This document shows positions 40,285-40,733 of a stretch of DNA of 64,000 bases, one piece after another. Position 1 is the first letter of the stretch, and each line of letters begins with the position of its first letter. Source of the DNA: Escherichia coli O127:H6 str. E2348/69 (GTDB lineage: Bacteria > Pseudomonadota > Gammaproteobacteria > Enterobacterales > Enterobacteriaceae). Location of the stretch: assembly GCF_000026545.1 (NCBI RefSeq), contig NC_011601.1. One strand, given 5' to 3'. Both the position numbers and the translations under genes were made by a program. Under the pieces are notes generated by a model that did no database searches, was not told the DNA's origin, and saw nothing but the letters and a program-made list of their open reading frames with translations.

Positions 40285-40319
40285 CCCCGTTTGTTGGCAG
40301 CAAGCGGGGTTTTGTTTTT
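40285..40319 (+). terminator. rho-independent terminator-like hairpin downstream of the endolysin
   Basis: ccccgtttg-ttggcag-caagcgggg followed by ttttgttttt. Confidence 0.6.
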
Positions 40320-40384
40320 ATGGCAGTAAGCTATGGGAGGCTGCCTTGATTGATTTTAGCAAACTGATTAGGGAGTTGCGACTC

Positions 40385-40480
40385 ATGATTAGTCAATTAC
40401 CAAACTGGAAATTTTTGCTGGTCTGGAGCATCCCTTTTTTATGGGTAGTATCCCAGTTAATTGTGGCAATTAAGGGGTAG
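40385..40480 (+). CDS. small hydrophobic peptide 1 (31 aa)
   Basis: MISQLPNWKFLLVWSIPFLWVVSQLIVAIKG; ATG with GGGAG upstream. Confidence 0.3.
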   Translation: MISQLPNWKFLLVWSIPFLWVVSQLIVAIKG

Positions 40481-40482
40481 CT

Positions 40483-40614
40483 ATGTCAGACAAACTCATA
40501 ACGCCGGCAAAGGTCCTGTGTGTGATTGTCGGTATTTCATTTTCACTAATGCTGGTTGCTCTTTTTCTGTCCCTCGCCTGGGTGATGTTGTCTTCGTCGG
40601 GGCTGCTGGGGTGA
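40483..40614 (+). CDS. small hydrophobic peptide 2 (43 aa)
   Basis: MSDKLITPAKVLCVIVGISFSLMLVALFLSLAWVMLSSSGLLG; starts 3 nt after peptide 1 stop. Confidence 0.3.
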   Translation: MSDKLITPAKVLCVIVGISFSLMLVALFLSLAWVMLSSSGLLG

Positions 40615-40733
40615 CAGTGACTGATGACATCAGCAGAGCGCTGGCTTTTGCTATTAAGTGGGTGGCTGTTGGTATTGCTGTGTCTCCGATGCTGTATGGG
40701 CTGGCAAAACTGGTCATTGCGCTGAAATCGTGA
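40611..40733 (+). CDS. small hydrophobic peptide 3 (about 40 aa, GTG start overlapping the previous stop)
   Basis: VTVTDDISRALAFAIKWVAVGIAVSPMLYGLAKLVIALKS; GTGA overlap suggests coupling. Confidence 0.25.
   Translation: MTVTDDISRALAFAIKWVAVGIAVSPMLYGLAKLVIALKS

Follow-up and report, generated by a model that had tools for sequence, protein, structure and literature searches.

Predicted genes for small membrane peptides between the endolysin and spanin genes of lambdoid prophages, and their possible role in lysis

The R-Rz gap and its coding content

The lysis cassette of a lambdoid prophage in Escherichia coli O127:H6 str. E2348/69 (contig NC_011601.1) lies at ~39-41.6 kb of the window, i.e., of the whole stretch of 64,000 nucleotides that was analyzed and to which all coordinates refer. 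On the plus strand, the genes for a holin, a YdfR-family protein and the lysozyme R are followed by a gap and by the gene for Rz with embedded Rz1. In phage lambda, R and Rz overlap, and in the K-12 prophages DLP12 and Qin we presume them to be contiguous. Here, 642 bp separate the R stop codon (40190) from the Rz ATG (40833), close to the ~640 bp of the original prediction, which had been made from the letters alone, and this gap is packed with hydrophobic open reading frames (ORFs), all oriented like the late genes. The three predicted ORFs of 31, 43 and ~40 amino acids (aa) are present with those sizes, ORF2 beginning 2 bases past the ORF1 stop and ORF3 overlapping ORF2 as GTGA. However, a total of three falls short by one, as ORF4 (40745-40831) lies beyond the predicted range, adjoining Rz; furthermore, the 31-aa frame of ORF1 exists, but probably is not the complete gene (see below). 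Along ORF1-ORF2-ORF3-ORF4-Rz, the stop-start distances are 2, -4, 11 and 1 nt. Every ORF has one hydrophobic transmembrane (TM)-like segment (19-residue window with a Kyte-Doolittle mean of 1.9-2.9), as claimed for the three predicted ones. We describe this region as a putative mobile module that comprises a terminator-like hairpin, a short leader bearing a strong Shine-Dalgarno (SD) sequence, and four coupled genes for single-pass inner membrane peptides. Three families are represented among the peptides, namely ORF1, ORF2 and ORF3/ORF4; by sequence criteria, all are encoded by genuine conserved genes.

ORF1 (40346-40480, plus strand) most likely starts with TTG 40346, which stands 5 nt past the SD sequence GGGAGG (40335-40340), and would encode 44 aa with the N-terminus IDFSKLIRELRLM and one TM segment, whereas the 31-aa version starts with ATG 40385. 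This start is preferred because the homologs keep the residues upstream of ATG 40385 (conserved motif IDFSKLIRELR(L/E)M) and have a GTG at the equivalent place (GVG-type starts, 5-6 nt behind a GGGAG SD sequence). Such homologs, of 45 aa, are found in E. coli, Enterobacter, Citrobacter, Providencia, Cronobacter and Salmonella. The N-terminus is basic and presumably cytoplasmic, and the C-terminal flank is KG. ORF1 matches phrog_6632 (E = 6e-5) and is likely to represent a real gene family. A 70-aa call at 40268-40480 crosses the terminator and was judged a gene-caller artifact.

ORF2 (40483-40614, plus strand; phrog_4906, 4.5e-21; PGAP WP_001280935.1) encodes 43 aa from an ATG preceded by the SD sequence AAGGGG, which is maintained across five different upstream contexts. 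The predicted peptide has a single N-in TM segment with the motif G17xxxS21; K4, G17, F20 and the core VGISFSLML are conserved, and the C-terminal flank is SLAWVMLSSSGLLG. In a tblastn search, ORF2 was found in 276 phage records, all covering >=80% of the query with 63-100% identity, and every row listed was full length. We regard it as very likely that ORF2 stands for a real family. Its origin as a duplicated Rz TM segment was considered, but inspection by eye gave only short, chance-level matches.

ORF3 (40611-40733, plus strand; phrog_1115, 6.4e-25) would encode 38-40 aa, either from GTG 40611, which overlaps the end of ORF2 as GTGA, or from GTG 40617. It corresponds to the TM core of a family of 60-aa proteins. 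In other loci, the 60-aa form consists of MEKYKRILLRLTMKNGLELKAP followed by the TM core and has an ATG start with an AGGGAG SD sequence; its N-terminus is basic and presumably cytoplasmic. The window copy is 5'-truncated: its first 22 codons are replaced by ORF1-ORF2, which leaves the two GTG codons as the only starts. As natural 38-aa versions with ATG occur elsewhere (P0216, P0220), a TM-only product is plausible, and we lean towards translation of the window copy from a GTG. The PGAP version of 51 aa with a CTG start was judged a gene-caller artifact.

ORF4 (plus strand; phrog_4493, 3.8e-6; PGAP WP_032140280.1) is a paralog of ORF3 with 28 aa. It starts with an ATG without an SD sequence, 11 nt past the ORF3 stop, and ends 1 base before the Rz ATG, and the codons of its ...IRWW tail form the Rz ribosome-binding site. 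A profile search finds further family members with the RWW ending. The two paralogs conserve AFAI(K/R), i.e., a basic residue within the membrane segment, followed by the small-xxx-small pattern VAVGxxxS; AFAI is invariant in the alignment of the ORF3 family (A1), and the C-terminal flanks are ALKS (ORF3) and AIRWW (ORF4). That ORF3/4 constitute a real gene family seems almost certain.

Selection on the reading frames was estimated as the ratio of nonsynonymous to synonymous differences (pN/pS; Nei-Gojobori, unique sequences, all three frames, codon bootstraps) in 194 related loci; note that the sequences summed in pairs are not independent of each other and recombine, and that the sample is biased to near-identical copies. 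For all four ORFs, pN/pS is <1 and lowest in the named frame: 0.39 for ORF1 (95% bootstrap 0.26-0.53; other frames 0.74 and 1.97), 0.53 for ORF2 (0.34-0.78; N-terminal half 0.38; other frames 0.71 and 1.09), 0.12 for the ORF3 core (0.05-0.26; other frames 1.05 and 5.2) and 0.48 for ORF4 (0.22-1.07; other frames 0.73 and 1.20). In ORF3, codon position 3 holds 18 of the 29 variable sites. A 33-aa frame inside ORF3 (40624-40725) and a 57-aa frame over ORF4 were rejected, as their pN/pS is ~1 or higher. Furthermore, the ORFs recur intact in hundreds of records with 63-100% amino acid identity and codon-position-biased substitution, and the families reach Salmonella, Enterobacter, Citrobacter and Providencia. 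The frames had been proposed to encode small membrane proteins, with their conservation in related phages as the check; purifying selection, conserved SD sequences and starts, single hydrophobic segments and cross-genus conservation support this.

Two explanations would make the peptides themselves irrelevant. According to the first, the ORFs are non-functional filler, i.e., T-rich recombination linkers that are open by chance, or decaying remnants of longer genes. The overlapping alternative frames are hydrophobic too, the window ORF3 is truncated and lacks an ATG, disruptions occur at some loci, and much of the apparent conservation reflects recent clonal spread, given that 100%-identical copies prevail among the sampled loci. 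However, the frame-specific pN/pS below 1 has bootstrap support for ORF1, ORF2 and ORF3, the ratios of the alternative frames are ~1 or higher, and the proteins are conserved across genera despite synonymous divergence, together with their SD sequences, which makes this explanation quite improbable. According to the second, the coupled short ORFs only deliver ribosomes to a weakly initiating Rz gene after the terminator and cargo split R from Rz, and the peptides are incidental. The short stop-start distances, the lack of an SD sequence before ORF4, and the lambda R/Rz overlap mentioned above fit this view, as does the observation that the small ORF before type-A Rz always ends with RWW, encoded by CGTTGGTGGTGA, the Rz ribosome-binding site. 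But a mere relay does not account for purifying selection at the amino acid level, especially in ORF3 and ORF1, for the conserved motifs AFAI[KR], VGISFS and IDFSKLIRELR, or for the invariable hydrophobicity; moreover, Rz has an SD sequence of its own (GGTGGTGA), and the families are also present where no Rz follows. We therefore consider it very unlikely as the whole explanation.

The stem of the hairpin upstream of ORF1 (40281-40313, 15 pairs) is followed by TTTTGTTTTT, and the T-run extends to position 40319; the terminator-like element with A-tract, stem and T-run is placed at 40281-40319 of the plus strand. The folding energy of the hairpin is -21.1 kcal/mol (z = -4.6). The strong hairpin plus T-run reported after R, and its designation as a terminator, were right as far as structure is concerned: the G+C-rich stem-loop, the T-run directly behind it and the compensatory changes are those of an intrinsic terminator. 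Seven sequence variants, folded one by one, all give -19.6 to -21.6 kcal/mol; the upper stem varies between lineages with compensatory changes (E. coli, Salmonella, Enterobacter) and stays paired, and a single stem position is U.G, U-A, A-U or G-C among the variants. A column-wise covariation count was dropped, since two classes of the hairpin differ by a bulge.

In all lysozyme-type loci, irrespective of the presence of ant, the ~90 nt between the R stop and the hairpin (40191-40280, plus strand) are highly conserved, to about the degree seen in coding sequence; they are not present behind GH108 and M15 endolysins. This segment includes an invariant mini-hairpin AGCAGAATATTTTGCT at the R stop codon, has no Rfam match, and could be a 3' untranslated region element or a small RNA (sRNA) ending at the terminator. 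A permissive Rfam scan of 38500-42500 (E <= 1) yielded no RNA family; AgvB/AsxR-type prophage sRNAs and Sok-like antitoxins, for which there was no Rfam match, are thus unsupported. No sigma-70-like site was seen on the plus strand from the hairpin to ORF1 by eye or in a scan, which was a crude consensus search. The only promoter-like site is a weak one on the minus strand (40489-40460), below the 2.7 sites expected from shuffling.

Occurrence in other lysis cassettes

The ORFs are known to databases as hypothetical proteins, and no characterizing paper was found; a full-text literature search gave nothing on them. PHROGs 6632, 4906 and 1115/3246/4493 cover them, all with the annotation "unknown function", and no family for any of the peptides exists in Pfam, NCBIfam or PADLOC. 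The expectation that gene finders would miss them was only partly borne out: ORF2, ORF3 and ORF4 are called as hypothetical proteins by PGAP/RefSeq, and PHROGs includes all four, but ORF1 is uncalled in the JJ1887 record (its equivalent is annotated in the record of phage PhiR5_1), and the ORF2 homolog between ant and Rz is unannotated in 933W, VT2-Sakai and most Stx1/Stx2 (Shiga toxin) phages. The queried 650 bp are 100% identical to sequence type 131 (ST131) strains, e.g., JJ1887. The region or parts of it are present in 2067 of 5426 complete E. coli genomes, and the full four-ORF form, again including ST131, in 586.

Among the fetched loci, the slot between R and Rz has at least nine arrangements, in which numerals denote the ORF families: R-3(long)-2-Rz, R-1-2-3-4-Rz (the one in the window), R-KilAC-1-2-3-4-Rz, R-3-4-Rz, R-KilAC-1-2-Rz, R-Ant-2-Rz, R-1-2-Rz, R-1-2-3-2'-Rz and R-a-3-b-4-Rz (a and b being further types of small TM ORFs). 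Two such further families of small single-TM ORFs (~50 aa, one of them phrog_12997) were observed amid ORF3/ORF4 homologs (locus L013, 1314-1466 and 1631-1780; locus L181, 2307-2504), so that the repertoire of the slot exceeds the three families of the window.

The families are not confined to cassettes of the type found in the window. In Salmonella, a Holin_2_3 holin and an R21-like SAR (signal-anchor-release) lysozyme are followed by a 60-aa ORF3 homolog and then by Rz. ORF1-family genes are flanked in E. coli by M15 endolysins on one side and by Rz or P2-type spanins on the other, and in Enterobacter by GH19 endolysins and phrog_1026/1275 spanins. In E. coli cassettes with Holin_8 and Holin_3_7 and a GH108 or M15 endolysin, ORF3/4- and ORF2-family genes are followed by the gene for a small lipoprotein and no Rz. 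This lipoprotein (MKRKHW...FFLVGC VSLDKARQLFDTASQVC...; phrog_7528, unknown function; L181, 2764-2961, and L184, 2688-2801) is found in cassettes without recognizable Rz/Rz1 and could be an uncharacterized outer membrane disruption factor. In locus L188, genes for heat-labile enterotoxin type II (LT-II; PF01375 and PF06453 LT-IIB; 477-1617) are inserted into a lysis cassette, where a GH108 endolysin and an M15 peptidase flank them; an ORF1-family gene and Rz lie farther downstream.

In the loci compared, the predicted module is almost always placed between endolysin and spanin, whichever families these belong to, and since the flanks are non-homologous, its position is not explicable by hitch-hiking on conserved flanks. 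The hairpin, besides being terminator-like, apparently belongs to the small-ORF module and moves with it. Whether the endolysin is a lysozyme or of the GH108, M15 or GH19 type, the form AAAACCCCG...CGGGGTTTT stands 5' of the first small ORF, and a leader CCTTG..AAGGCAAGGGAGAAC common to the loci joins this hairpin to a first gene of either the ORF3 or the ORF1 type; ant-bearing loci have a different hairpin (-18.8 kcal/mol) in the same position. The synteny across cassettes and the traveling hairpin appear to be undescribed in the searchable literature.

Small cargo genes at gene boundaries of late operons are well known from lambdoid phages as morons (bor, lom, cor, HK97 gp15); they have a mosaic distribution and often encode membrane proteins. 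The ORFs might accordingly be moron-type cargo that serves the lysogen, maybe by superinfection exclusion at the membrane or host modulation, with the junction as a permissive slot. The cassette-like shuffling and presence/absence variation agree with this, as do the other cargo of the same slot (ant/KilAC antirepressors, LT-II toxin genes), the homologs in tail regions, where cor and lom sit (one of these homologs is bracketed by terminators), and the slightly lower GC content of the ORFs (42-51% vs 53-57% for R). Classical morons, however, have their own promoter, a downstream terminator and expression in the lysogen. Here, no promoter-like site was found upstream, the terminator is upstream rather than downstream and would silence the ORFs in a lysogen, translation is tightly coupled into Rz, and the position across non-homologous flanks is kept far beyond the expectation for a random permissive site. 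Moron-type cargo is therefore in our opinion unlikely.

Possible functions

Among the three roles suggested originally (lysis timing, superinfection exclusion and toxin-like action), which sequence comparisons do not separate, a role in lysis is favored by the conserved placement between unrelated endolysins and spanins. We propose that the ORFs may encode late-expressed, single-pass accessory lysis peptides that act by TM helix contacts, and assign this interpretation a probability of roughly 45%. The ORFs would be transcribed solely within the Q-antiterminated late operon, as suggested by the lack of a sigma-70-like site in the stretch from the hairpin to ORF1. The hairpin would stop unmodified polymerase but be read through by the Q-modified enzyme, and it might shield the genes behind it in the lysogen or stabilize processed RNAs. 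Translation would be relayed from the strong first SD sequence through the ORFs into Rz. The peptides would insert in the inner membrane alongside the holin, the SAR endolysin and Rz and could adjust the timing or efficiency of lysis via helix-helix contacts, with the holin or the membrane anchors of endolysin or spanin as likely partners. Small-xxx-small motifs are present in all peptides, and ORF3/4 have the conserved intramembrane Lys or Arg. The differing ORF combinations might represent alternative tuning sets.

Small membrane proteins beside SAR endolysins are known to modulate lysis, e.g., in the P1 lyz-lydD-lydE operon (PMC9025707) and in the case of the Mu releasin (PMC9239132). In P1, small membrane protein genes are likewise located directly 3' of the gene for the SAR endolysin, are overlapping/coupled and expressed late; LydD is an accessory pinholin that tunes lysis timing, and the small ORF lydE has no assigned role (PMC9025707). 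However, LydD has 84 aa with two TM domains, and its C-terminus is highly basic, whereas the ORFs considered here have 28-60 aa and one TM segment and lack a charged tail. Sequence similarity is absent, and several families occur, in tandem and shuffled. The Mu releasin gp25, a membrane protein but not a holin, is encoded a few genes 3' of the SAR endolysin and controls the release of this endolysin (PMC9239132). It differs from our families by its length (99 aa), its 73-aa cytoplasmic domain and its N-out/C-in topology; the families studied here are shorter and accompany soluble GH108, M15 and GH19 endolysins as well. No Pfam match to DUF2730 (releasin) was obtained among the peptides.

The S21 pinholin of phage 21 (S21-68/S21-71) represents the holin type of this cassette, and its second TM domain (TMD2) resembles the ORF3 core WVAVGIAVSPMLYGL; S21 TMD2 alone is able to form transient pores (bioRxiv 10.1101/2021.04.20.440580). 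The peptides share with holins and antiholins at least one TM domain and the position in a lysis cassette, but not the charged C-terminus and dual start, nor do they have a second TMD, and neither alignment A1 nor A3 matches Pfam PF04971 (S21 pinholin). The periplasmic domain of an i-spanin has to span the distance to the outer membrane (~100 aa). Here, the C-terminal extramembrane tails have <=14 aa, and no peptide matches a spanin PHROG. The peptides show no feature that would define them as holins, spanins or releasins.

In size, hydrophobicity and the single TM segment, the ORFs also resemble type I toxins such as Hok, Ldr, TisB and Ibs, i.e., single-TM hydrophobic peptides of 20-50 aa (28-44 aa for the ORFs of the window). 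They could thus be toxin-like or abortive-infection-style membrane-depolarizing peptides silenced at the RNA level, and the weak minus-strand site at 40489-40460 could yield an antisense RNA over ORF1. But no antisense RNA, long 5' untranslated region or own promoter was detected, an Rfam antitoxin/sRNA match (E <= 1) or PADLOC match is missing, and the ORFs are translationally coupled members of the late operon and point in its direction; a tandem of four is also unlike known type I loci. A toxin function is accordingly most improbable.

Several observations nevertheless weigh against accessory lysis peptides. The literature and databases searched contain no experiment, paper or annotated family that would give a function, and in P1 the closest positional analogue, lydE, has no lysis phenotype (PMC9025707). 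ORF2 and ORF4 are under no more than moderate selection, and decayed copies exist in some prophages (ORF1 stop in L009, ORF2 frameshift in L011, broken ORF3 and ORF4 in L003), hence the ORFs are dispensable. The families co-occur with SAR as well as soluble endolysins and with several holin types, which implies no single partner. Two homologs are encoded in tail regions in a moron-like manner, an ORF3 homolog in Salmonella with terminators on both sides and an ORF1 homolog in Citrobacter, and late-only expression is derived from a crude promoter scan. Finally, the resemblance of ORF3 to the pinholin TMD2 of the same cassette (ORF3 core vs TMD2: WVAVGIAVS vs WAAIGVLGS) is suggestive but lacks statistical support (BLASTP E = 0.006 for a single pair; hhalign probability 2.4%), and homology was rejected.

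A more far-reaching version of the accessory lysis proposal assumes that terminator, leader and peptides form a mobile lysis-tuning cassette not described before. In it, interchangeable single-TM peptides of at least three families (five with the types from L013) would act in trans on the TM helices of holin, endolysin anchor or spanin and set the time of lysis, being swapped between unrelated cassettes; ORF3/4, for example, might mimic the hole-forming TMD2 of the pinholin. We regard this as possible, but doubtful. If it is true, peptides in Shiga toxin phages would set the timing of toxin release, as lysis timing determines the phage burst size and, in these phages, the time and amount of toxin released. 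Should holins or spanins be modulated by the peptides, the holin-endolysin-spanin model would gain a further layer, and the peptides would be compact tools for lysis control; if they have no role in lysis, they would be a clear case of small-protein cargo using one specific late-operon junction. The three conserved peptide families at the endolysin-spanin junction (four endolysin types, three genera) are cheap and well-defined targets. The finding points to a concrete, testable gap in how lysis by medically relevant phages is modeled; it does not amount to a new type of system.

Other genes of the cassette

The holin gene (39023-39238, plus strand) encodes an S21-type class II holin of the pinholin type with the dual start MDQMEK (phrog_9876, phrog_20; PGAP "class II holin family protein"); one holin variant in related loci is phage 21 S. 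The product of the lysozyme gene R (39657-40190, plus strand) is of the SAR type, has 177 aa and belongs to phrog_7 (endolysin). It matches the structures of the phage 21 lysozyme (PDB 3hde/3hdf) and of RrrD (4zpu), and its N-terminus is SAR-like, weakly hydrophobic and rich in Ala/Gly. The i-spanin Rz is encoded at 40833-41327 on the plus strand (phrog_13, Rz-like spanin, 1.4e-77), and the embedded o-spanin Rz1 at 41053-41238 on the same strand (from the ORF list; lipobox VVSAC).

An in-frame fusion of holin and ORF3 sequences was observed on a metagenome scaffold (L187, 43-222; P0223), where the N-terminal half of an S21-type holin is joined to the C-terminal half of ORF3 and followed by ORF2-ORF3-ORF4. 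The joint lies at the microhomology AGTGGG(C/T)GGC, and the fusion probably arose by a microhomology deletion during decay of the prophage, or else as a chimera of the assembly; it was therefore set aside as support for homology between the two proteins.

Between holin and endolysin lies the YdfR-family gene (39243-39593, plus strand; 116 aa; phrog_406/2091, unknown function), which is overlapped on the opposite strand by a PGAP call for a 90-aa hypothetical protein. A second terminator-like hairpin (12 pairs plus T-run, 38955-38983) is located between a SASA-family esterase gene and the holin gene. At the other end of the cassette, an ORF of 74 aa (41324-41548; phrog_2571, unknown function; a hypothetical protein in RefSeq) overlaps the Rz stop codon as ATGA.

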